Shown: positions 1,560 to 54,795, counted from the whole stretch's first letter. The stretch is DNA of 62,702 nt, filler included, from 5 parts of 5 records of this genome joined end to end with filler, not necessarily neighbours in it; one strand, 5' to 3'. Numbers and translations: made by a program. The notes: generated by a model not told the origin, from the sequence alone.

Positions 1560-2258
1560 ATGGCAAAAACAGAATCTACATTAGTAAACATGGTACTTGC
1601 CTTGCTGATTATTACAGCAATAGCAGGTGGCTCGCTGGGTATGGTTTACAAGGTAACCAAGGAGCCCATAGCACAGGCCAAACTGGCCAAGCAGCAAAAA
1701 GCAATTCAAGAAGTAGTTCCGGGTTTTGATAACGATCCAACTACTGAGATGTATGAAATAACCTCTAAAGAAGGATACAAACTTGAGGTTTTCCCTTGTA
1801 AAAAAGGAGAAGAACTATTGGGTGTAGCTATTTCTTCTAAAACAGAAAAAGGATTTAGTGGTGAAATTAAAATCATGGTGGGTTTAAAACCTGATGGCAG
1901 CATTATTAATTATGCAGTCTTGGAACACAAAGAAACACCTGGATTAGGATCAAAAATGGGTGTTTGGTTCCGACCTGATGCTCCAAAAGCCGGCGCTGTT
2001 GAGGAGGAAAAAAGCAGCAAGCTTTTTGAATGGATTTTTGGTAAAAAGTCAGCAGGAGGTGGTAACAAAAGTATTTTAGGTAAGAATCCGGCCAATACTA
2101 AAATGATCGTTTCTAAAGATGGTGGAGATATTGACGCCATAACTGCAGCTACGATTAGTTCAAGAGCATTTTTAGATGCTGTTATGGTAGCTTACACAAC
2201 TTATATGGAAAATGCAGATACCACTGCAACAACAGAAGAGAAAGGAGGACAGTCATGA
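1560..2258 (+). CDS. rnfG: Rnf complex subunit G
   Basis: N-terminal TM helix, HKETPGLG, FMN motif DAITAATISS. Confidence 0.93.
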   Translation: MAKTESTLVNMVLALLIITAIAGGSLGMVYKVTKEPIAQAKLAKQQKAIQEVVPGFDNDPTTEMYEITSKEGYKLEVFPCKKGEELLGVAISSKTEKGFSGEIKIMVGLKPDGSIINYAVLEHKETPGLGSKMGVWFRPDAPKAGAVEEEKSSKLFEWIFGKKSAGGGNKSILGKNPANTKMIVSKDGGDIDAITAATISSRAFLDAVMVAYTTYMENADTTATTEEKGGQS

Positions 2259-2839
2259 GTCAATGGAAGAATTTTTCAAAAGGTTTCTTTAAAGAGAATG
2301 CCGTTTTCACCCTGTTATTGGGTATGTGTCCTACTCTTGGAGTAACCTCATCGGCCATTAACGGTTTAGGAATGGGATTAGCAACCACATTTGTTCTAAT
2401 CATGAGTAACATTGTGGTGTCGTTGGTTAAGGATTTTATTCCTGACAAAGTCCGTATCCCTTCATTTATTGTAATCATAGCATCCTTTGTAACGGTAGTG
2501 GAATTGTTAATGCAAGCCTATCTGCCTGCACTATTTGAATCATTAGGATTATTTATTCCGCTTATTGTTGTAAACTGTCTTGTACTTGGTAGAGCTGAAG
2601 CTTTTGCTTCTAAAAATGGCTTTCTATCTTCTTTAATTGATGGTGCAGGTATGGGACTTGGATTTGCGATGGCATTAACCATGCTTGGTGCAGTTCGTGA
2701 GTTCTTTGGAAGTGGTAAAATGTTTGACATGGTATTGTTCCCAGAACAATATGGAATGTTAGTATTTGTTTTGGCTCCGGGTGCATTTATCGCATTGGGT
2801 TATTTAATTGCCATCATTGACAAACTTAAAAAAGCCTAA
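2255..2839 (+). CDS. rnfE: Rnf complex subunit E
   Basis: LLGMCPTLGVT and IPLIVVNC motifs; ATGA overlap with rnfG. Confidence 0.94.
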   Translation: MSQWKNFSKGFFKENAVFTLLLGMCPTLGVTSSAINGLGMGLATTFVLIMSNIVVSLVKDFIPDKVRIPSFIVIIASFVTVVELLMQAYLPALFESLGLFIPLIVVNCLVLGRAEAFASKNGFLSSLIDGAGMGLGFAMALTMLGAVREFFGSGKMFDMVLFPEQYGMLVFVLAPGAFIALGYLIAIIDKLKKA

Positions 2840-2842
2840 GAA

Positions 2843-3415
2843 ATGGAATACGTTTTAATATTTATATCAGCCATCTTTGTTAATAACATCGTATTGGCAC
2901 AATTCCTTGGGATATGTCCGTTCCTTGGGGTTTCTAAAAAAATATCTACCGGTATCGGTATGACAGGAGCCGTAACTTTTGTGATGGTAATAGCCACTAT
3001 AGTTACTTATTTATTACAAAAGTTTGTTTTAGATACTTTTAATGTAGGCTACCTGCAAACCATTTCTTTTATTTTGGTTATTGCAGCTCTGGTACAGCTG
3101 GTTGAAATTATTCTAAAAAAAGTAAGTCCGCCATTGTATCAGGCATTGGGGGTATTCTTACCATTAATTACAACGAACTGTGCTATTTTAGGTGTAGCCA
3201 TTATGACTATTCAAAAAGACCTTAATCTATTGGAAGCTGTGGCATTCTCTACAGCTACGGCAATAGGTTTTGGATTGGCATTAATCATTTTTGCAGGAAT
3301 TCGCGAACAATTAGAACTAGTGGACTTACCAAAAGGTATGAAAGGTACTCCCATCGCTTTATTAGTAGCGGGTATTTTGGCATTGGCCTTTATGGGTTTT
3401 GCCGGCCTTGTATAG
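2843..3415 (+). CDS. rnfA: Rnf complex subunit A
   Basis: [11 protein letters not shown] and [12 protein letters not shown] motifs. Confidence 0.94.
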
Positions 3416-3435
3416 ATTGAAATAAAAATTGAGAT

Positions 3436-3477
3436 AAGAAAAGCCGTTCTTGAGTAATCAGGAACGGCTTTCTTTTT
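3436..3477 (+). terminator. Rho-independent terminator of the rnf operon
   Basis: AAGCCGTTCTTGA-gtaa-TCAGGAACGGCTT hairpin followed by a T-tract. Confidence 0.85.
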
Positions 3478-3537
3478 GCCCACTTTTATACTCAATTGTA
3501 AAACTTAGTTAAATACAGAAATAAATCCGTATTCAAC

Positions 3538-3568
3538 TTTGCAGAATACAGTTTAAATTCTACTTTTG
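3538..3568 (+). promoter_or_regulatory. Bacteroidota housekeeping promoter (-33 TTTG / -7 TAnnTTTG) for the CoA-disulfide reductase gene
   Basis: TTTG at 3538-3541, 19-nt spacer, TACTTTTG at 3561-3568. Confidence 0.7.
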
Positions 3569-3654
3569 CACACCATGCTATCTAGATGTATAGATATATT
3601 AACATCTAGTATGTTCTATGTTAGAAATATAAAACTTTAATATCATATAAACTC

Positions 3655-6141
3655 ATGGCAAAATATGTAATCGTTGGTGGTGTTGCAGGGGGAGCTACTG
3701 CAGCGGCCCGCCTAAGGAGATTGGATGAGCAGGCACAAATTATCATGTTTGAACGAGGTGAACACATCTCCTATGCCAATTGTGGACTTCCGTATTATAT
3801 CGGAGATACCATTAAGGACAGAGAAAAACTATTGGTTCAAACCCCGGAAAGCTTTAATGCAAGATTGAATGTAGATGTAAGGACTTTTCAGGAAGTAACT
3901 AAAATTAACAAAGAAGAAAATTCTGTTGAGGTTTTGAATCATAAAACAGATGAAGTATATAAAGAAACCTACGACAAGTTAGTTGTTTCACCAGGTGCAG
4001 AACCAGTTAAGCCTCCGATTACAGGAATTAATGATGAGTCTATATTTACATTAAGAAATGTAAGAGACACGGATAAAATCAAATCGTTTTGCGACAATAA
4101 AAAACCACAAAGAGCGGTTGTTGTGGGTGCTGGTTTTATTGGTTTGGAAATGGCAGAAAACCTGCATGAACTAGGCATGAATGTTACCATCGTAGAAATG
4201 GCCAGCCAGGTTATGGCTCCATTAGACTACGAAATGGCAGCAGAAGTACACCAGCATTTAAAAACTAAAAATGTTGAGTTCTATCTAAAGGATGGAGTAA
4301 GTTCATTCAAACGCGATGGTTCTAACCTAACCGTGAACCTTCAGTCAGGTAGAAGCATTGAAACCGATATGGTTATTCTTTCTATTGGGGTGCGTCCAGA
4401 AACTAAATTAATTAAAGAAGCAGGTTTAGAATTAGCTGAAAACGGAGGTGTCAAAGTTAACGAATACCTTCAAACTAATGATGAGAATATTTATGCTTTA
4501 GGTGATGCCATTGCATTCCCTCATCCCATTACCAAAAAATATGTAAATACATATTTAGCTGGTCCTGCAAACAAACAAGGACGTATTGTTGCAGATAATA
4601 TTGTATTGGGAAATACACGCAAATATAAAGGGGCAATTGCTACGGCTATTGCCAAGGTATTTGACATTACTGTTGCCTCAACCGGTATGCCTGCTAAAGT
4701 ATTAAAAAAGGAAGGTATTGAATATATCTCAAATATTATTCACGGATCTTCTCATGCAGGTTACTACCCAGGCGCTTTACCTTATACTTTAAAAATATTA
4801 TTTCACCCTAAGACGGGTAAATTATATGGTGCGCAAATGATCGGTTACAAAGGCGTTGACAAGCGCATTGACCTGATCGCTACCGTGCTTTTAAATAATG
4901 GATCTATTTACGACCTTCAGGATATTGAACATGCTTATGCGCCTCCTTATTCATCTGCTAAAGATCCGGTTAACCAGGCAGGATATGCTGCAGAAAACAT
5001 TATCACAGGAAGAGTAAACATTATCAACTGGGCTAATTTATCAAGATTAGACTCTGGTAACATTACTTTGATTGATGTTCGTACGCCATCAGAACATGAA
5101 TTAGGACATATCGAAGGAAGTATCAACATTGAAGTGGATAAAATTCGTGAGCGTATAAATGAAATTCCTCGCGATAAAAAGATTATTATTTACTGTGGTG
5201 TTGGTATTCGTGGATATTTTGCTGCCCGAATTTTAATTCAGAATGGCTTCGAAAATGTTTACAACCTAAGTGGAGGTTACAAAACTTACGAGCATACAAC
5301 CAGCAAGCAAAGTAACGAGGACATTTTTGAATCAAGCTACATTGCTACAGATGACCATATTTATAGAGGAAAGCCAGCAGATGCGATATTGAGCGACATG
5401 GTTAAAACCATTGAAGTAGATGCGTGTGGTTTACAATGTCCCGGACCAGTATTAAAGTTAAAAGAAGAAATAAACAAGCTGGAGTCAGGACAACGTATTG
5501 TTCAAAAGGCCAGCGACCCTGGTTTTATGAAAGATGTAAAGTCATGGTGTAATGTTACCGGTAACAAACTTATTTCATTAGACTCTAAAGAAGGTATTAT
5601 TACGGCTGTAATTGAAAAAAGCGGAGCGAAGGCAGCTAATGCTGCAAAAGCTTCACAAAATGTAGCATTGCCCGATAATAAAACCATGGTTGTTTTCAGC
5701 GATGATATGGATCGCGCCTTAGCTTCACTGGTAATTGCAAATGGAGCAGTTGCCATGGGTAAAGAGGTTACTTTATTTTATACCTTCTGGGGACTTAACA
5801 TTATTAAAAAAACAAACAAACCTAAAGTGGATAAAGACATGATGGGTAAAATGTTTGGGAAAATGATGCCTTCAAATGCCGGAAAACTAAAACTATCCAA
5901 AATGAATATGATGGGTATGGGTTCGGTAATGATGAAAAAACGTATGCTATCTAAAAAGGTAGATTCTATTGAAGATATGATTCAAACCGCTTTAGATAAT
6001 GGAGTAAAAATGATTGCCTGTCAAATGTCGATGGATGTGATGGGTGTAGATAAGGATGAGTTAATTGATGGCGTAGAAATTGGCGGAGTAGCTACTTATT
6101 TAGAAGAAGCTGACAAATCAAACTTAAACTTATTTATTTAA
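3655..6141 (+). CDS. CoA-disulfide reductase-like FAD oxidoreductase fused to rhodanese, TusA/SirA and DsrE-like domains
   Basis: GGVAGG FAD motif, SYANCGLPY redox Cys, GAGFIG, YAPPYS; rhodanese DVRT..YCGVGIRG; TusA DACGLQCPGP; DsrE2 TLFYTFWG..ACQMSMDVMG. Confidence 0.9.
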   Translation: MAKYVIVGGVAGGATAAARLRRLDEQAQIIMFERGEHISYANCGLPYYIGDTIKDREKLLVQTPESFNARLNVDVRTFQEVTKINKEENSVEVLNHKTDEVYKETYDKLVVSPGAEPVKPPITGINDESIFTLRNVRDTDKIKSFCDNKKPQRAVVVGAGFIGLEMAENLHELGMNVTIVEMASQVMAPLDYEMAAEVHQHLKTKNVEFYLKDGVSSFKRDGSNLTVNLQSGRSIETDMVILSIGVRPETKLIKEAGLELAENGGVKVNEYLQTNDENIYALGDAIAFPHPITKKYVNTYLAGPANKQGRIVADNIVLGNTRKYKGAIATAIAKVFDITVASTGMPAKVLKKEGIEYISNIIHGSSHAGYYPGALPYTLKILFHPKTGKLYGAQMIGYKGVDKRIDLIATVLLNNGSIYDLQDIEHAYAPPYSSAKDPVNQAGYAAENIITGRVNIINWANLSRLDSGNITLIDVRTPSEHELGHIEGSINIEVDKIRERINEIPRDKKIIIYCGVGIRGYFAARILIQNGFENVYNLSGGYKTYEHTTSKQSNEDIFESSYIATDDHIYRGKPADAILSDMVKTIEVDACGLQCPGPVLKLKEEINKLESGQRIVQKASDPGFMKDVKSWCNVTGNKLISLDSKEGIITAVIEKSGAKAANAAKASQNVALPDNKTMVVFSDDMDRALASLVIANGAVAMGKEVTLFYTFWGLNIIKKTNKPKVDKDMMGKMFGKMMPSNAGKLKLSKMNMMGMGSVMMKKRMLSKKVDSIEDMIQTALDNGVKMIACQMSMDVMGVDKDELIDGVEIGGVATYLEEADKSNLNLFI

Positions 6142-10138: not shown

Positions 10139-11038
10139 ATGAAATATTTAGCCCTAAATATTAAAAGAAGCATTGTATTAGTATTATTCATATTCCATCT
10201 TGTTGTTAGTTTTGCACAAGAATTTCAGAAAGAAAAGTTGGAAGCACTATTTTCAGAGATAGACTTTAATACGGTCTATTACCCTAAAGTAGCTAAACTT
10301 CAATTGGATTCTCTTAAGTCATCGTTTTCTGTTCAACAGATTGAGGAATATAAAGGATATATTCATTTTTTGAACGCCCAGTCATTTTATAATGATTTGG
10401 AAGTAGACTCTTCTCTGCATCATTTAGATAAAGCACTACCTTATTTTACCCAACAAGAAAATAATGTTTGGTTAGCTAAAATCCAGTTTCTTTTAGGAGC
10501 AATTGCTGAAGCGACAGGTTTATATGAACAAGCAAAAATTAATTATTACGAAACTATTAAGTTGGCATCAAATCAACAAGAAGAAGGAGGGTTGTCCTAC
10601 TTAGGAATTGCCAGGTGTAAAAAAGCATTAGATGAAGTTTATTCGGAGGAGCTGGTAAATGGATTAAAATTGCTCGAAGAGGACGAAAGGTTGGAGGTCC
10701 GTCTATATTCAAGATTTACAAATAGTTTGTTTCATTTAACAAAGAAAGAATCGATGATTGAATTGAAGCAAATTGCTGATAAGTATCTTGAATTAAAAAT
10801 GATTAACAGGGTTATAAACACCTATAAAGTTCTAGCAAGTAGTTTTCATGCGCAAAATAAGTATGATTCAGCCCATGTTTATTGTGATAAAGCGATTGAT
10901 ATAAGTGAAAGAAATGATATTGGTAAATTGACTTTGCCTGCTTTGTACCAGTTCAAAGGAATGTTATTTTTTAAACAGGAGAGATTCAATATTGCAGATG
11001 TTTATTTTAGTAAGTCTTTAAGTTCAATAGTCCGTTAA
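10139..11038 (+). CDS. Signal-peptide TPR-repeat protein, probably C-terminally truncated
   Basis: Signal peptide (..VVSFAQ) and TPR-like helices; ends abruptly 14 nt before the contig end. Confidence 0.7.
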   Translation: MKYLALNIKRSIVLVLFIFHLVVSFAQEFQKEKLEALFSEIDFNTVYYPKVAKLQLDSLKSSFSVQQIEEYKGYIHFLNAQSFYNDLEVDSSLHHLDKALPYFTQQENNVWLAKIQFLLGAIAEATGLYEQAKINYYETIKLASNQQEEGGLSYLGIARCKKALDEVYSEELVNGLKLLEEDERLEVRLYSRFTNSLFHLTKKESMIELKQIADKYLELKMINRVINTYKVLASSFHAQNKYDSAHVYCDKAIDISERNDIGKLTLPALYQFKGMLFFKQERFNIADVYFSKSLSSIVR

Positions 11039-11052
11039 GGTACGGTATAAAA

Positions 11053-11152
11053 NNNNNNNNNNNNNNNNNNNNNNNNNNNNNNNNNNNNNNNNNNNNTTAA
11101 TTAATTAANNNNNNNNNNNNNNNNNNNNNNNNNNNNNNNNNNNNNNNNNNNN
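11053..11152. other. Artificial contig linker
   Basis: N44-TTAATTAATTAA-N44, with stops in all six frames. Confidence 0.98.
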
Positions 11153-11926
11153 AATTTCTTTTTTACCAGTAGTAAAACCACCAATTGCTCCACCAAAAGC
11201 TTTTCCCAAGGTTCCGGTTATAATGTCAACTTTTCCTTTTAAGTTATATAACTCTGTTACACCACGTCCCGATTCTCCAACGACTCCTGCTGAGTGACAT
11301 TCATCAACCATAACCATGGCATCATATTTTTCAGCCAGTTCTACTATTTTGTCAACCGGAGCAACATGTCCGTCCATTGAAAATACACCATCGGTTACTA
11401 TGATTCTAAAACGGTGCTTTTGAGCTTCTTTAAGTTGATCTTCCAAATCCTCCATATCAGCAGATTCGTAACGATAACGATGAGCTTTACATAATCTAAC
11501 TCCATCAATTATTGAAGCGTGATTTAGCGTGTCTGAAATAATTGCATCTTCACTTGTGAGTAATGGTTCAAAAACTCCACCGTTTGCATCAAAGCATGCA
11601 GCATAGAGAATAGTGTCTTCTGTTCCAAAATAATCGGCAATTTGCTTCTCCAATTCTTTATGTAAATCTTGCGTTCCACAAATGAAACGAACCGATGACA
11701 TGCCATATCCGTGAGAATCTAATGAATTTTTCGCTGCTTGTATAAGTCGCGGATGATTTGATAATCCTAAGTAATTATTTGCACAAAAATTCAAAACCTC
11801 TTCACCGGTATTTATTACAATATCAGCCTTTTGTGCACTAGTAATAATTCTCTCTTTTTTATAAAGACCCGCATTTTTAATAGCCTCTAATTCCGCTTGC
11901 AAATGCTCTTTTATTTTTCCGTACAT
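11153..11926 (-). CDS. kbl: Glycine C-acetyltransferase (2-amino-3-ketobutyrate CoA ligase), 3'-truncated
   Basis: [42 protein letters not shown] lysine in [10 protein letters not shown]. Confidence 0.93.
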
Positions 11927-11996
11927 TGTACTTAGTGTTTTATTTTATTTAACAGAAGTTTACTCGATAATGTTTGTATTTCTTATCAATTGGCTG

Positions 11997-12004
11997 CAAA
12001 TGTA
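11997..12004 (-). promoter_or_regulatory. Bacteroidota -7 promoter element for kbl
   Basis: TACATTTG on the minus strand, about 70 nt upstream of the kbl start. Confidence 0.55.
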
Positions 12005-12121
12005 GCATAAATTTCAAGGAAAGAAATGGAGAAAAACTATGTTTTTTACCATAGAAAAGTCAAGACATATTATTTTTTAGAAATGTACTAATAATGAAAC
12101 ATTTCTGAAATTGAAATAAAC

Positions 12122-12150
12122 AAAAAAAGCTGCCCAAAGACAGCTTTTTC
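12122..12150 (-). terminator. Terminator after the kbl paralog
   Basis: AAAAAGCTG(c/t)C-caaa-GACAGCTTTTT hairpin with a T-tract on the minus strand. Confidence 0.7.
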
Positions 12151-12167
12151 AATAATTTAAAGAGAAA

Positions 12168-13415
12168 TTAACTTCCGTACATCTCAATAATCTCTTGTTT
12201 TGTTTTACCCAGGATATCGTACTTTTTACCAACCTTAATAAAAGCATCCAAAGCTTTTTCAAGATGATGCATTTCATGTCCGGCTGAAATCTGCGTGCGG
12301 ATTCTCGCTGCTCCTTGAGGAACTACAGGAAAGAAGAACCCAATAGCATAAACTCCTAGATCGAAAAGATCACGTGAAAAATCCTGTGACAATTTCGCAT
12401 TAAATAACATTACAGGAACGATAGGAGTATCCCCATCTTTCAATATAAATCCTGCTTCTGTTAATCCTTTTCGCCAGAATTTGGTGTTCTCTTCCAATTT
12501 ATCTCTACGTTCTGTACTTTGGGAAAGAATATCCAGTACTCTTAATACACCACTGACAACTACAGGAGCGATAGTATTTGAGAATAAATAAGGACGGGCC
12601 TTTTGGCGACACATTTCCACAATTTCTTTTCTACCAGAAACACATCCTCCGGAAGCGCCTCCCAATGCCTTACCAAATGTTGTCGTTATAACATCTACTT
12701 TATCCATAACACCATACTTTTCGTGTGTGCCACGTCCGGTTTTTCCTATAAAACCTGAAGAGTGAGACTCGTCAACAAACAATAGCGCATCATATTTTTC
12801 ACACAGAGCAGCAATTTCATCCATTTTTGCTGTATCTCCATCCATGGAGTAAACACCATCGTTAATTACAATCTTAAGCCTTTTATTAGCATGTAATTGT
12901 AATTTCTTTTCAAGATGATCCATGTTGGAGTGTTTAAATGTATCGTGCTGAGCAGGACATAACCTCATGCCATCAATAATAGATGCATGAACCAATCGGT
13001 CCGAAATCATTACATCATCGCTTGTAAGAATCGCTTCAAAAACACCAGCATTGGCATCCATACATGATGGAAATAAAATGGTATCTTCGGTTCCCAGAAA
13101 CTCAGAAACCTTTCTTTCCAATTCTCTATGAATATCCTGAGTACCACATATGAACCTTACGGATGACATTCCATAACCTCTTGTGTCCAAACCTTCGTGT
13201 GCTGCTTTAATTACTTCAGGATGACTTGATAAACCAAGGTAATTATTTGCACAAACGTTTATTACTTTATTTAACGAAGAGCCTGTTGGGAATTCAACTT
13301 CTATATCCGCAGCTTGTGAAGAATGGATAAACCTTTCTTGTTTAAATAACCCAGCATCCTGAATGGATTTTAACTGGGATTGATATAATTCTTGTACTTT
13401 ATTTGAATATGCCAT
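12168..13415 (-). CDS. Second glycine C-acetyltransferase-like PLP alpha-oxoamine synthase (Kbl paralog)
   Basis: [65 protein letters not shown]. Confidence 0.9.
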   Translation of the reverse strand: MAYSNKVQELYQSQLKSIQDAGLFKQERFIHSSQAADIEVEFPTGSSLNKVINVCANNYLGLSSHPEVIKAAHEGLDTRGYGMSSVRFICGTQDIHRELERKVSEFLGTEDTILFPSCMDANAGVFEAILTSDDVMISDRLVHASIIDGMRLCPAQHDTFKHSNMDHLEKKLQLHANKRLKIVINDGVYSMDGDTAKMDEIAALCEKYDALLFVDESHSSGFIGKTGRGTHEKYGVMDKVDVITTTFGKALGGASGGCVSGRKEIVEMCRQKARPYLFSNTIAPVVVSGVLRVLDILSQSTERRDKLEENTKFWRKGLTEAGFILKDGDTPIVPVMLFNAKLSQDFSRDLFDLGVYAIGFFFPVVPQGAARIRTQISAGHEMHHLEKALDAFIKVGKKYDILGKTKQEIIEMYGS

Positions 13416-13468
13416 TTGATTTTGGGTTTAAATGAATAAAAAAGCCATCAAAATAGATGGCTTATTAT

Positions 13469-13714
13469 TTATAGAAATCGTTTAACTAAAGTTTCAATTT
13501 TATTCACTGTATCGAAAGCCTCAGGAGAAGCATCTGCATCAGGAATAGAAATTTTGTACTTATTTTCAAGAAACCTTTTTAACGAAACCATTGAAAATGA
13601 ATCAACAAGACCTCCAGAGATAAGTGGAGTATCAAACGTTACTTCATCATCTTCTTCATCACAGTATTCTTCAATAACATATTCCAAGATTATGTCTTTC
13701 ATATTTTCTTCCAT
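13469..13714 (-). CDS. Acyl carrier protein
   Basis: 81 aa, very acidic; phosphopantetheine site GLVDSFSMVSL; FDTVNKI C-terminal helix. Confidence 0.88.
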   Translation of the reverse strand: MEENMKDIILEYVIEEYCDEEDDEVTFDTPLISGGLVDSFSMVSLKRFLENKYKISIPDADASPEAFDTVNKIETLVKRFL

Positions 13715-13770
13715 AGTAGTAATATTTATTAGTTAATGATTTATAATTTTCAATATTGGTAATTTACGAA

Positions 13771-15474
13771 TTAATCATCTTCTAAAGTAGAAATATCTCC
13801 AATTTCTTCACCCCATTCTTCAGCATGTAATACACGTCGCATTATTTTCCCGCTTCGTGTTTTTGGTAAAGAATCGCGATATTCAATTTCCTGTGGCATA
13901 GCTAATGGAGATAATTTTTTGCGAATAAAATTCATAATTTTAAGTTCCATATCTTCATCAGCAACATATCCTGGTTTAAGGGTAACGAAAGCCTTTACTA
14001 CCTCCATATTTACATCATCCGGTTTTGCTACAACAGCCGATTCAGCAACTGCTTCATGTTCTAATAAAGCAGATTCTACTTCAAATGGACTAACCAAATG
14101 TCCGCCAGTGTTTATTACATCATCATCACGTCCTATAAACCAGTAGTAACCTTCATTGTCAATATATGCACGGTCTCCTGGAAGATACCAGCCATTCTCG
14201 AATTTTTTATTGTAGGTTTCTTCATTTCCCCAGTATGTCCTCATCATTGCAGGCCAACCAGGTTTAAAACCAATAAGACCGGGTTTTCCTATTTCATTGA
14301 TTGGTTCGTATGTTTTTGTATCCAATATAGTTGCAGTAATACCAGGGAAAGGTTTTCCCATAGATCCCGGCTTTATTTTCATACCAGGGAAGTTTGTAAG
14401 CATCATGGAACCTGTCTCCGTTTGCCAATAAGTATCAAGGAATGGTTTGCCAAATACTTTCTCTGACCATATTACTGCCTCAGCATTTAAAGGCTCTCCA
14501 ACGCTTGCTAAATGGCGTAACGTTGACAAATCAAATTGTTTTATCAAATCCTCACCAGCTTTCATTAAAGAACGGATTGCCGTTGGTGCAGAGTACCACA
14601 TGGTAATTTTTCTCTTTTCTATAAATCGATACCATGATTCTGCCGAGAATCCAGTATCTAAGACACACTGGGTTATCCCCAGGCTCCATGGGCCAATAAT
14701 CCCATAGGATGTTCCCGTAACCCAACCAGGATCGGCTGTACACCAGTAAATATCATCTTCCTGTAAATCAAGAACCCATTTTGTGGTTAAATATTGAGAT
14801 ATTAAAGAATAATGCACATGTTTCACACCTTTAGGCTGACCTGTTGTTCCGGAGGTATAGTGTAAAACAGAGTGGGATTCCGCTTTAGTAGGTGCGATTT
14901 CAAAATTTTCTACTTGCTCTGCCTCATCCATATTAAATGCAATCTCTATTTCTCTAAGTGGCTTACTTCCGTCATAATCAACCAGAATAATATGCTTCAT
15001 ATAGGGCATTTTATCCAGAATTTTCCGCACTTTGGACACATGTTTTCTCTGTGTAATAATTGCAGTTGTTTCTGCATTATCTAAGCGTACATGTAAAGAT
15101 TCATCACCGAAGGCTGAAAATAATGGTTGAGCGACTGCTCCTAATTTTAGAATTCCCAAAAATCCAATATACAATTCAGGAATCTTATCCATGAATAAGC
15201 ATACACGATCTCCGGTTTGTATTCCTAAATCTTTTAAAAATGAAGCAATGGTATTACTTCTTAAACGAACATCATTAAAGGTATACTGTTTCTCTTTCCC
15301 TCCTAATCCTTCCCAAATTAAAGCAGGTTTATTTGCTTTACCTAGATCACAAATTCTATCGGAACAATACCATCCGATATTTATATTGTCACCCTTTTTG
15401 TAATTAAGCTCGTTTTCTGCAATCGACCAGTCGAAATTCTCTAGTCTCTTCTCATAGGATCCAATGTTTGACAT
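13771..15474 (-). CDS. Acetate-CoA ligase-like AMP-forming adenylation enzyme (AcsA type)
   Basis: YTSGTTGQPKG, TADPGWVTG, VGEPLN, YWQTETG, GRDDDVINTGG, LPKTRSGKIMRR. Confidence 0.9.
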   Translation of the reverse strand: MSNIGSYEKRLENFDWSIAENELNYKKGDNINIGWYCSDRICDLGKANKPALIWEGLGGKEKQYTFNDVRLRSNTIASFLKDLGIQTGDRVCLFMDKIPELYIGFLGILKLGAVAQPLFSAFGDESLHVRLDNAETTAIITQRKHVSKVRKILDKMPYMKHIILVDYDGSKPLREIEIAFNMDEAEQVENFEIAPTKAESHSVLHYTSGTTGQPKGVKHVHYSLISQYLTTKWVLDLQEDDIYWCTADPGWVTGTSYGIIGPWSLGITQCVLDTGFSAESWYRFIEKRKITMWYSAPTAIRSLMKAGEDLIKQFDLSTLRHLASVGEPLNAEAVIWSEKVFGKPFLDTYWQTETGSMMLTNFPGMKIKPGSMGKPFPGITATILDTKTYEPINEIGKPGLIGFKPGWPAMMRTYWGNEETYNKKFENGWYLPGDRAYIDNEGYYWFIGRDDDVINTGGHLVSPFEVESALLEHEAVAESAVVAKPDDVNMEVVKAFVTLKPGYVADEDMELKIMNFIRKKLSPLAMPQEIEYRDSLPKTRSGKIMRRVLHAEEWGEEIGDISTLEDD

Positions 15475-15518
15475 AGAAGTTGTTTTTAAAGTTAGATTAT
15501 CTTTTGTTTTGGTCTAGA

Positions 15519-15899
15519 TCATTTGTCGCTATTTAAAATAACAAAGGCGTTAGCAATTTCTTTCGTATGACTCATGGAAAGATGAATTGTACTAACTTCT
15601 AATTTATCAGCAATTTGCTTAGCAATTCCTGTCAGTGATATCTCAGGTTTACCCAGCTCATTATTTTCTATTTCAATGTCTGTGAATTTTATTCCATCTC
15701 TCCAACCAGTGCCCAGGGCTTTCATTAATGCTTCTTTGGCAGCATATCGGGCAGCATAGTTTTCCTCTTTTCTTTTTCGGGGATGGCAATAATTGATTTC
15801 GGTTTCTGTAAACACGCTTTTAATAAACAATGGATCTTTTTCCATAGCTTGTTTTATGCGAGCGACTTCGAAAATATCTGTTCCTATGCCTAGTATCAA
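15519..15899 (-). CDS. acpS: Holo-ACP synthase (AcpS-type phosphopantetheinyl transferase)
   Basis: GIGTDI, ARYAAKEALMKALGTG, GKPEI, LSMSHT; TTG start. Confidence 0.92.
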   Translation of the reverse strand: MILGIGTDIFEVARIKQAMEKDPLFIKSVFTETEINYCHPRKRKEENYAARYAAKEALMKALGTGWRDGIKFTDIEIENNELGKPEISLTGIAKQIADKLEVSTIHLSMSHTKEIANAFVILNSDK

Positions 15900-16194: not shown

Positions 16195-16294
16195 NNNNNN
16201 NNNNNNNNNNNNNNNNNNNNNNNNNNNNNNNNNNNNNNTTAATTAATTAANNNNNNNNNNNNNNNNNNNNNNNNNNNNNNNNNNNNNNNNNNNN
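16195..16294. other. Artificial contig linker
   Basis: N44-TTAATTAATTAA-N44. Confidence 0.98.
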
Positions 16295-23487: not shown

Positions 23488-23587
23488 NNNNNNNNNNNNN
23501 NNNNNNNNNNNNNNNNNNNNNNNNNNNNNNNTTAATTAATTAANNNNNNNNNNNNNNNNNNNNNNNNNNNNNNNNNNNNNNNNNNNN
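23488..23587. other. Artificial contig linker
   Basis: N44-TTAATTAATTAA-N44. Confidence 0.98.
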
Positions 23588-54695: not shown

Positions 54696-54795
54696 NNNNN
54701 NNNNNNNNNNNNNNNNNNNNNNNNNNNNNNNNNNNNNNNTTAATTAATTAANNNNNNNNNNNNNNNNNNNNNNNNNNNNNNNNNNNNNNNNNNNN
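54696..54795. other. Artificial contig linker
   Basis: N44-TTAATTAATTAA-N44. Confidence 0.98.

Follow-up and report, generated by a model that had tools for sequence, protein, structure and literature searches.

We analysed a stretch of DNA of 62,702 nucleotides, hereafter called the window, which carries a compact unit of four genes encoding a holo-acyl carrier protein synthase (AcpS), an AcsA-type acetate ligase, a discrete acyl carrier protein (ACP) and Kbl2p, a paralog of glycine C-acetyltransferase (Kbl). An earlier interpretation made from the sequence alone (the sequence-only reading) had proposed that these genes constitute a carrier-protein-dependent glycine C-acylation system, and our comparative analysis partly supported it. 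Gene order, co-occurrence and sequence conservation indicate that the ligase, the ACP and Kbl2p are one conserved, co-occurring and unusually constrained unit, and the module is well supported as a genetic entity. As for its function, we consider it probable that acetate is carried as acetyl-S-ACP, that Kbl2p interconverts acetyl-S-ACP and glycine with 2-amino-3-oxobutanoate, and that Tdh links this compound to threonine. Which thiol the ligase acylates, what supplies Kbl2p with its acyl group and which way the flux runs are our inferences.

The window is a chain of at least five contigs joined by runs of N at positions 11053-11152, 16195-16294, 23488-23587 and 54696-54795 (pairs of 44-N runs). 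The 5-kb contig at 11153-16194 carries the four-gene unit and a second kbl gene, all in minus orientation; its features are listed below in the order of transcription.

15519..15899, minus strand: 126-aa holo-ACP synthase encoded by acpS, which opens the unit and has a TTG start (TIGR00516, PF01648)
13771..15474, minus strand: AcsA-type AMP-forming acetate ligase, 567 aa, proposed acetate:holo-ACP ligase (NF003313; AMP-binding and AMP-binding_C of Pfam)
13469..13714, minus strand: dedicated acidic carrier protein (ACP), 81 aa (PF00550, GLVDSFS motif)
13442..13463, minus strand: 8-pair hairpin in the spacer between ACP and Kbl2p, T runs present on both strands (pattern match only)
12168..13415, minus strand: Kbl2p, 415 aa, a Kbl-clade alpha-oxoamine synthase dependent on pyridoxal phosphate (PLP), proposed to act as acetyl-ACP:glycine C-acetyltransferase (TIGR01822)
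12123..12150, minus strand: terminator-like hairpin of 12 pairs followed by a T run, 18 nt past the Kbl2p stop codon (hairpin pattern)
11153..11926, minus strand: second kbl, canonical type, 258 aa visible, cut by the contig end (TIGR01822, 460 bits for the partial protein)

The sequence-only reading had described four co-oriented genes separated by gaps of about 45-55 nt, and the spacers calculated from the coordinates of the open reading frames were indeed 44 nt (acpS-ligase), 56 nt (ligase-ACP) and 53 nt (ACP-Kbl2p). The contig joins, the second kbl and the hairpin at 12123-12150 were absent from it. The four encoded proteins look small and soluble, and the family assignments that it gave for AcpS, the ligase and the Kbl paralog all held at the cut-offs of the respective models. 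AcpS scored 105 bits against TIGR00516 (cut-off 59.8) and 63.6 bits against PF01648, the ligase scored 754.9 bits against the acetate--CoA ligase model NF003313 (cut-off 729), and Kbl2p scored 570.6 bits against TIGR01822 (cut-off 493) and 560.3 bits against NF005394 (cut-off 460). The discrete ACP does contain the GLVDSFS motif, and its score against PF00550 (20.8 bits) lies exactly at the cut-off. The 11-residue Kbl-type motif recognized earlier is also present in Kbl2p.

The strongest evidence for the module comes from gene order, which was compared in two sets of loci. A genome scan for the ACP, with one genome per species, gave at least 415 confirmed relatives among 600 pattern matches, and the ACP-centred set consisted of 81 genome loci, namely the best 80 of these at least 415 relatives and a more divergent locus from Bacteroidota (L081). 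The ligase-centred set consisted of 80 metagenome loci found with a ligase-ACP fusion protein as the query, so that the two sets together comprised 161 loci. Neighbours were counted by tblastn in loci with room, that is, loci whose contig extends far enough to hold the neighbour. A ligase of the module type lay just upstream of the ACP in 65 of 73 genome loci and in all 54 metagenome loci with room, and the next gene after the ACP encoded Kbl2p in 71 of 74 genome loci and 44 of 47 metagenome loci; the median ligase-ACP spacer was 46.5 nt. The gene immediately before the ligase encoded AcpS in 42 of 61 loci with room in the genome set and in 24 of 48 in the metagenome set. Contigs from other samples span the Kbl2p-ACP and ACP-ligase junctions at 90-99% likeness.

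The few exceptions have recognizable features. The three genome loci that missed Kbl2p (L045, L048 and L073) carry the genes in broken frames, and the three corresponding metagenome loci (L145, L168 and L186) have ligases that are only 57-58% identical. An ACP match was missing in 15 metagenome loci; 10 of these lie on contigs that break off in the ligase gene or no more than about 250 nt past it, and three others have ligases of only 51-56% identity. Three loci without an adjacent ligase (L013, L016 and L030) have one elsewhere in their genomes, at 75-77% identity.

The module occurs in at least 10 phyla, including Bacteroidota, Aminicenantes/Acidobacteriota, Zixibacteria, Chloroflexota and Delongbacteria; further named taxa are Cloacimonadota, Ignavibacteriota, Krumholzibacteriota, Elusimicrobiota and metagenome-assembled genomes (MAGs) labelled Clostridia. 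The hosts, as far as their records name them, belong mostly to uncultured lineages of sediments, bioreactors and mats. Because the same gene order recurs in loci of many phyla, the arrangement is not a matter of chance, and the synteny of acs, ACP and kbl on which the sequence-only reading depended is conserved.

Co-occurrence was examined in one sample of 251 evenly drawn Bacteroidota genomes. The ACP type was found in only two of them, G001 (94% identity) and G158 (59%), and the ligase type was found in the same two genomes only (93% and 66%, respectively). Five other ACP matches in this sample were generic ACPs of 28-36% identity, and the next-best ligases were four short AcsA-type enzymes (46%), the rest being long Acs proteins of at most 42%. 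Thus, the view that the genes act as one unit, already put forward from the sequence, gained support from synteny, from exclusive co-occurrence in this sample and from the gene fusions described below.

The three core proteins are also conserved to an unusual degree. Among 43 loci, the median pairwise identity was 81.7% for Kbl2p, 76.4% for the ligase and 72.5% for the ACP, compared with 48.4% for AcpS, which by this measure appears to evolve like an ordinary resident gene. In the 15 loci with both Kbl types, Kbl2p showed the higher identity of the two in all 105 genome pairs (80.5% vs 59.3% for canonical Kbl). These identities suggest that the unit is either strongly constrained or spreading as a cassette.

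In some lineages the carrier is fused to its proposed partners. An in-frame ligase-ACP fusion of 659 aa (P0281), 65% identical to the window ligase over 562 aa, has three full-length members, from Logan and from NCBI Vicinamibacterales MAGs, and further ligase-ACP fusions are P0279 (664 aa) and the fragment P0278. AcpS-ACP fusions were also found (P0280, 231 aa with three members, and P0276). A ligase-carrier didomain is expected if the ligase loads the carrier, and the ligase-ACP fusions resemble adenylation-carrier didomains in their architecture. Both kinds of fusion occur in high-GC lineages, one member bearing the name of a Vicinamibacterales MAG. Two apparent ACP-Kbl fusions (P0283 and P0273) were rejected as frameshifted gene calls with long stretches matching neither protein.

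Kbl2p itself is, by sequence, a member of the Kbl family. Its best solved relatives are the Kbl structures 7bxp, 7v58 and 1fc4, to which it aligns end to end with few gaps, and it shares with them the motifs HASIIDG, DGV(F/Y)SMDG, VD(E/D)(S/C)H, G(T)(L/F)GKALGG, RPYLFSN and ARIR(T/V)Q. H143, D215, H218, K249 and R371/R373, which we take to be the PLP lysine and active-site positions of Kbl, are invariant among 35 Kbl2p sequences, and the length of 415 aa is kept in 73 of 75 cases. Models for serine palmitoyltransferase (SPT) gave scores far from their cut-offs (314.2 vs 640, 286.3 vs 500 and 230.5 vs 670 bits), and those for BioF, ALAS and CqsA were also under their cut-offs. A phylogeny of the paralog against these families had been suggested earlier. 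In a FastTree phylogeny of 107 alpha-oxoamine synthases from the loci (a fast method with midpoint rooting only), Kbl2p formed one clade of 76 rows including L081 and L054, with an SH-like support of 98, nested among Kbl sequences. Branches within the clade are short and group largely by phylum, and its sister consists of tandem copies of 62% identity from Delongbacteria-type loci.

Within this family, Kbl2p is set apart from 19 canonical Kbl sequences by 21 fixed differences and by a 14-aa C-terminal extension. The fixed changes include LNHAS to LVHAS (Asn to Val), Y(S/A)SCFDAN to FPSCMDAN, L269C, S273A, H330T and D339N; the His beside the Asn-to-Val change is presumably the one that stacks on PLP. 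The product of the second kbl in the window is 55% identical to Kbl2p, scores 460 bits against TIGR01822 over 258 aa, and shares 74-90% identity with the canonical Kbl genes that lie close to the module in related Bacteroidales (L002, L005, L034, L042 and L074).

The ligase likewise retains the features of an acetate-activating enzyme, as had been read from the sequence. The acetate--CoA ligase model is its best match, and long-chain ligase models score far under their cut-offs. Its closest solved relative is 9g79, a 572-aa acetyl-CoA synthetase (563 bits, full-length alignment). The GWVTG, SVGEP and YWQTETG motifs, whose residues have roles known from the Salmonella and Methanothermobacter Acs enzymes, are kept. 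W350 is present in 64 of 70 module ligases (Phe in the other 6), and K543, the lysine of PKTRSGK, in 69 of 70. We take the acetate-pocket residues to be counterparts of Val310, Thr311, Val386 and Trp414 of Salmonella Acs, and the PKTRSGK lysine presumably corresponds to its catalytic, acetylatable Lys609. Because the acetate-type pocket is kept, the substrate would be acetate, or propionate at most. Module ligases are at least 64% identical to each other, and a search among representatives of 50%-identity clusters gave full-length relatives of at most 50% identity. The long matches in that search were proteins resembling nonribosomal peptide synthetases, tandem Acs and intein-bearing Acs, none of them fused to an alpha-oxoamine synthase. 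One of the proteins seen, P0123 (949 aa), is an Acs homologue 48% identical to the window ligase and interrupted by an intein with a LAGLIDADG domain.

In the ACP, Ser39 in VDSFS is presumed to be the 4'-phosphopantetheine site, and it lies in a block, LISGG-x-VDSFSMVSLK-x-FLE, in which all non-x positions are invariant in 35 diverse sequences except G34 (at least 90%). At E ≤ 0.001 there were 7308 relatives, the best 120 of which were 75-99% identical and carried names from several phyla. The score against the housekeeping AcpP model TIGR00517 was 21 bits, under its cut-off of 70.45, and only weak NCBIfam matches were obtained (OlsHI ACP, AmcB, DltC and AsbD), all under their cut-offs. The best of these was ACP_for_OlsHI, with 55 bits against a cut-off of 130. 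The lead to OlsH/OlsI was dropped, since the accessible description concerns a planctomycete, GH3-dependent ornithine-lipid pathway and the score is far under the cut-off.

The simplest model in which all conserved parts have a role is the following, and we hold it to be probable. AcpS would convert the dedicated 81-aa apo-carrier to its holo form, and the ligase would then catalyse acetate + ATP + holo-ACP <-> acetyl-S-ACP + AMP + PPi. Kbl2p would catalyse acetyl-S-ACP + glycine <-> 2-amino-3-oxobutanoate + holo-ACP, and Tdh, whose gene is part of the operon in certain lineages and lies apart from it in other ones, would join 2-amino-3-oxobutanoate to L-threonine. The net result would be to join acetate, glycine and threonine by a route coupled to ATP/AMP + PPi and kept apart from the acetyl-CoA pool. 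The rationale for such a private carrier pool is that it would decouple the thioester from the acetyl-CoA/CoA ratio. The gene context of Kbl2p and the fusions argue for a carrier-bound acetyl group in place of acetyl-CoA as the donor or CoA as the acceptor. With regard to direction, we lean only slightly towards acetate-consuming condensation, because uptake-type acetate transporters and Pat-like genes adjoin the module.

The genes around the core vary by lineage, and the most informative of them is tdh, whose co-occurrence had been proposed as a check. A Tdh of the short-chain dehydrogenase/reductase (SDR) type was found in 13 of the 161 loci by tblastn (E = 1e-127 to a solved TDH), and in 8 of the 161 Tdh lies directly upstream on the same strand, at most 70 nt from the next module gene. 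The order Tdh-AcpS-ligase-ACP-Kbl2p is seen in L046, L053, L035 and L058. In L046, an Ignavibacteriales locus, a microcompartment shell homologue (EutM/EutK-like, with weak scores) is encoded at 4049-4612, just upstream of this series. At the level of genomes, a clear Tdh of the SDR or Zn type is present in 8 of 10 that carry the module, including the Zn type in G001 and G260 and the SDR type in G003-G005, G256 and G257. In G002 and G158 there were only sub-threshold Tdh matches, the one in G158 lying just upstream of the module. The sequence-only reading had envisaged a route to threonine; the tie to Tdh in 8 loci speaks for it, but a replacement of the normal pathway was rejected, as ThrC scored over its cut-off in 5 of 5 genomes.

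Genes related to acetate also adjoin the module. The acetate transporter SatP/AceTr occurs in 15 of the 161 loci (NF038013, 272.6 bits vs 50) and directly follows Kbl2p on the same strand in 12 of them, and ActP/MctC-like symporters are found near the module in 6 of the 161. Pat-like proteins of about 900 aa, which combine a part resembling ADP-forming acyl-CoA synthetases with a GNAT domain, are encoded near the module in 6 of the 161 loci (L013 at 10318-13011, L069 at 1666-4380, L019, L058, L078 and L187). These neighbours hint that the ligase may be regulated by lysine acetylation.

Further alpha-oxoamine synthases are frequent companions of Kbl2p. Canonical Kbl, 51-54% identical to Kbl2p, is encoded 2-9 kb from the module in four of five near-complete genomes, and the fifth (G002) has a TIGR01825-type enzyme adjoining the module. 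In four genomes of Zixibacteria/Ignavibacteria (G259, G261, G262 and G263), Kbl2p is the only Kbl-level match, an absence that is provisional because these genomes are MAGs. G264 has one extra Kbl fragment, possibly the missing end of its truncated Kbl2p. Of the loci with downstream room, 26 of 74 from genomes and 5 of 47 from metagenomes contain a second alpha-oxoamine synthase gene. Its type varies, being a canonical Kbl, a tandem copy of 62% identity, a TIGR01825-type enzyme or a distant synthase (31-42%). The tandem copy is 61-63% identical to Kbl2p and follows it after about 60-110 nt in L037, L051, L052, L066, L067 and L077; that of L066 is over the Kbl cut-off (595.8 bits). Directly downstream of Kbl2p, Zixibacteria/Ignavibacteria have a distant synthase (31-37%, under all NCBIfam cut-offs) and Chloroflexota a TIGR01825-type enzyme (560 bits vs 535). 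Loci with another synthase directly after Kbl2p are L014, L046, L053 and L065, and also L015, L028 and L043.

Several findings weigh against a private acetyl-carrier route. In all 5 genomes examined, no acpS other than that of the module passed the family cut-off, and the module AcpS is thus the housekeeping phosphopantetheinyl transferase and not a dedicated one, which weakens this part of the sequence-only reading. Its place as the first gene of the unit, upstream of the ligase, may reflect convenience and not dedication. Lateral transfer, and not constraint, could be partly behind the high identity across phyla. Fusions are rare, with no fused ligase-ACP gene among 141 adjacent pairs in the loci. 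Canonical and presumably CoA-dependent Kbl genes only 2-9 kb away make a second Kbl look redundant, and with ThrC in 5 of 5 genomes and AckA in 4 of 5, neither the threonine supply nor ATP from acetyl units is obviously dependent on the module. No residue of the ligase was found by which enzymes acylating an ACP could be told from those acylating CoA. The exchange of the A8-loop Arg of long Acs for Leu was considered as such a marker and rejected, because Leu or Met also occurs there in four short AcsA-type ligases of Bacteroidota genomes without the ACP. Moreover, in 8 of 11 genomes no Acs-family match other than the module ligase passed the thresholds applied, so the ligase may double as the acetyl-CoA synthetase of the cell, and the Pat-like and ActP-like flanks seen in places, as with ordinary acs, fit a plain acetyl-CoA synthetase. 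These last points, together with nearby SatP and with scores of the ligase and Kbl2p over the NCBI equivalog cut-offs for acetate--CoA ligase and glycine C-acetyltransferase, would also suit an explanation in which the ligase is an ordinary acetyl-CoA synthetase, Kbl2p is a CoA-dependent Kbl isozyme, the ACP is a regulatory or scaffold subunit or an unrelated acyl carrier, and the cluster reflects co-regulation of acetate and glycine metabolism. We regard this explanation as unlikely. It does not account for the ACP between both enzymes in nearly all loci, for a ligase type that never appears without the ACP in the genome sample, or for in-frame fusions like adenylation-carrier didomains; the near-invariant ACP surface around the serine argues for several protein partners, and the 21 fixed differences of Kbl2p, with the Asn-to-Val change beside the presumed PLP-stacking His, speak against a simple isozyme.

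Within the acetyl-S-ACP route, a catabolic run is chemically plausible and can be entertained tentatively. Tdh would oxidise threonine, Kbl2p and holo-ACP would give glycine and acetyl-S-ACP, and the reversed ligase would convert acetyl-S-ACP + AMP + PPi into acetate + ATP, so that energy would be conserved in amino-acid fermentation and SatP would export the acetate. The location of Tdh directly before the module on the same strand in 8 loci and the mostly uncultured hosts from sediments, bioreactors and mats are in its favour; AceTr-family transporters could act as exporters, and a private carrier pool could be held highly acetylated. A precedent for the reversed ligase is Acs1 of Syntrophus aciditrophicus, an AMP-forming enzyme that, according to the accessible part of the report, runs in the ATP-forming direction with acetyl-CoA, AMP and PPi (PMC4992975). 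However, where AckA is present (4 of 5 genomes) ATP is already obtainable from acetyl-CoA through canonical Kbl, the ActP/MctC-like symporters and Pat-like genes (6 loci each) are typical of acetate scavenging, and the sequences carry no indication of catalytic direction. That the module is an energy-conserving device for threonine fermentation, turning acetyl units on a private carrier into acetate and ATP by reversal of an AMP-forming ligase, seems unlikely on balance. The product might instead be another aminoketone or a small molecule derived from it, such as aminoacetone, a pyrazine-type signal or an aminopropanol precursor, made in secondary or niche metabolism from another amino acid or short acid with the help of the second alpha-oxoamine synthase often alongside. 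The patchy distribution (2 of 251 Bacteroidota genomes), the varying type of that second synthase and the fixed changes near the active site of Kbl2p would fit such a role, and 2-amino-3-oxobutanoate decarboxylates spontaneously to aminoacetone. We nevertheless consider it quite unlikely, given that Kbl2p lies deep inside the Kbl clade and over the Kbl cut-off, that 8 loci have Tdh as the immediate, co-directional neighbour of the module, and that Kbl2p is the only Kbl in four genomes. No tailoring, export or regulatory genes typical of secondary metabolism were conserved around the module in the loci examined, and the riboswitch search described below was negative.

The closest known system is, by analogy of architecture, AcpR/AasR/SPT of Proteobacteria, which makes a sphingolipid precursor from a long-chain fatty acid and serine; in the accessible part of its description, AasR acylates only its own carrier AcpR and not CoA, and SPT prefers acyl-AcpR (PMC9386255). 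The parallel to an ACP-dependent serine palmitoyltransferase drawn in the sequence-only reading is thus real as far as that source goes. In both systems a ligase of the ANL family, a dedicated small carrier and an alpha-oxoamine synthase are encoded together, and in the module the carrier likewise co-occurs with the ligase and the synthase. The two systems differ in their enzymes and neighbours: the synthase of the module is not an SPT, its ligase is of the acetate type with the Trp pocket kept and not a long-chain acyl-ACP synthetase, and its neighbours are Tdh and acetate transporters, not lipid genes.

Compared with the canonical Tdh-Kbl pathway (threonine <-> glycine + acetyl-CoA), the module shares a synthase over the Kbl model and, in some loci, the pairing with Tdh. 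Unlike canonical Kbl, however, Kbl2p stands beside a carrier and an acetate ligase, forms a separate clade, evolves more slowly and usually has a canonical Kbl nearby. The ligase resembles the short AcsA-type enzyme 9g79 over its full length, with the presumed catalytic Lys and acetate-pocket Trp kept, whereas the ligases of the module are closely related among themselves, are confined to ACP-carrying genomes in the genome sample, and are in some lineages fused to the ACP. Stand-alone pairs of an adenylating enzyme and a carrier are familiar from DltA/DltC and AsbC/AsbD, and the citrate lyase ligase CitC, which is not an ANL enzyme, loads acetate onto a protein-bound thiol using ATP. To our knowledge, none of these feeds an alpha-oxoamine synthase. 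Our search of the literature met with neither an acetate ligase-ACP-Kbl module nor a Kbl that depends on acetyl-ACP, most subscription journals and supplements being outside its coverage.

As for expression of the unit in the window, the hairpin at 12123-12150 is terminator-like and would end the four-gene unit, separating Kbl2p from the second kbl, which lies 241 nt downstream of Kbl2p and is predicted to be a separate transcription unit. The hairpin at 13442-13463 is possibly a partial terminator, an internal attenuator or a processing site, and as an attenuator or processing site it would set the ratio of carrier to enzyme. In one run of an RNA library, the only small contigs matched parts of acpS, of the canonical kbl and of Kbl2p at its 3' end; being contigs, they speak neither for nor against co-transcription. 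At gathering thresholds, a search for riboswitches and leaders returned only a tRNA, in 9 loci, and it gave nothing on the contig of the window at E ≤ 0.1. In Bacteroidales loci of the L001-L012 type, the closest relatives of the window, genes for SiaC-family phosphoproteins and a TPR-SpoIIE phosphatase-receiver protein lie about 3.5 kb upstream of the ACP; they were found in 14 and 10 loci, respectively, and look like lineage-specific synteny. The GC content of the window ranges from 0.26 to 0.53 in 2-kb bins, and contigs of low GC (about 0.31-0.38, and 0.26-0.34 at the window end) alternate with others near 0.5; sequences of more than one organism may thus be combined in the bin.

Both Kbl and Acs are known from textbooks as CoA enzymes. 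If the proposed function is true, bacterial SPT would be joined by a second alpha-oxoamine synthase that is supplied by an acyl carrier of its own, the first to use a two-carbon unit, and a protein thiol would be seen to be a possible dedicated acceptor for an Acs-type enzyme. The resulting route between acetate, glycine and threonine would be insulated from the acetyl-CoA pool, which bears on acetate assimilation or amino-acid fermentation in sediments and digesters. Should the catabolic direction prove true, this would be substrate-level phosphorylation from an acyl-carrier-protein thioester, without described precedent, across many uncultured anaerobic phyla. Because annotation pipelines label these genes 'acetate--CoA ligase' and 'glycine C-acetyltransferase', metabolic reconstructions may misassign flux in these lineages.

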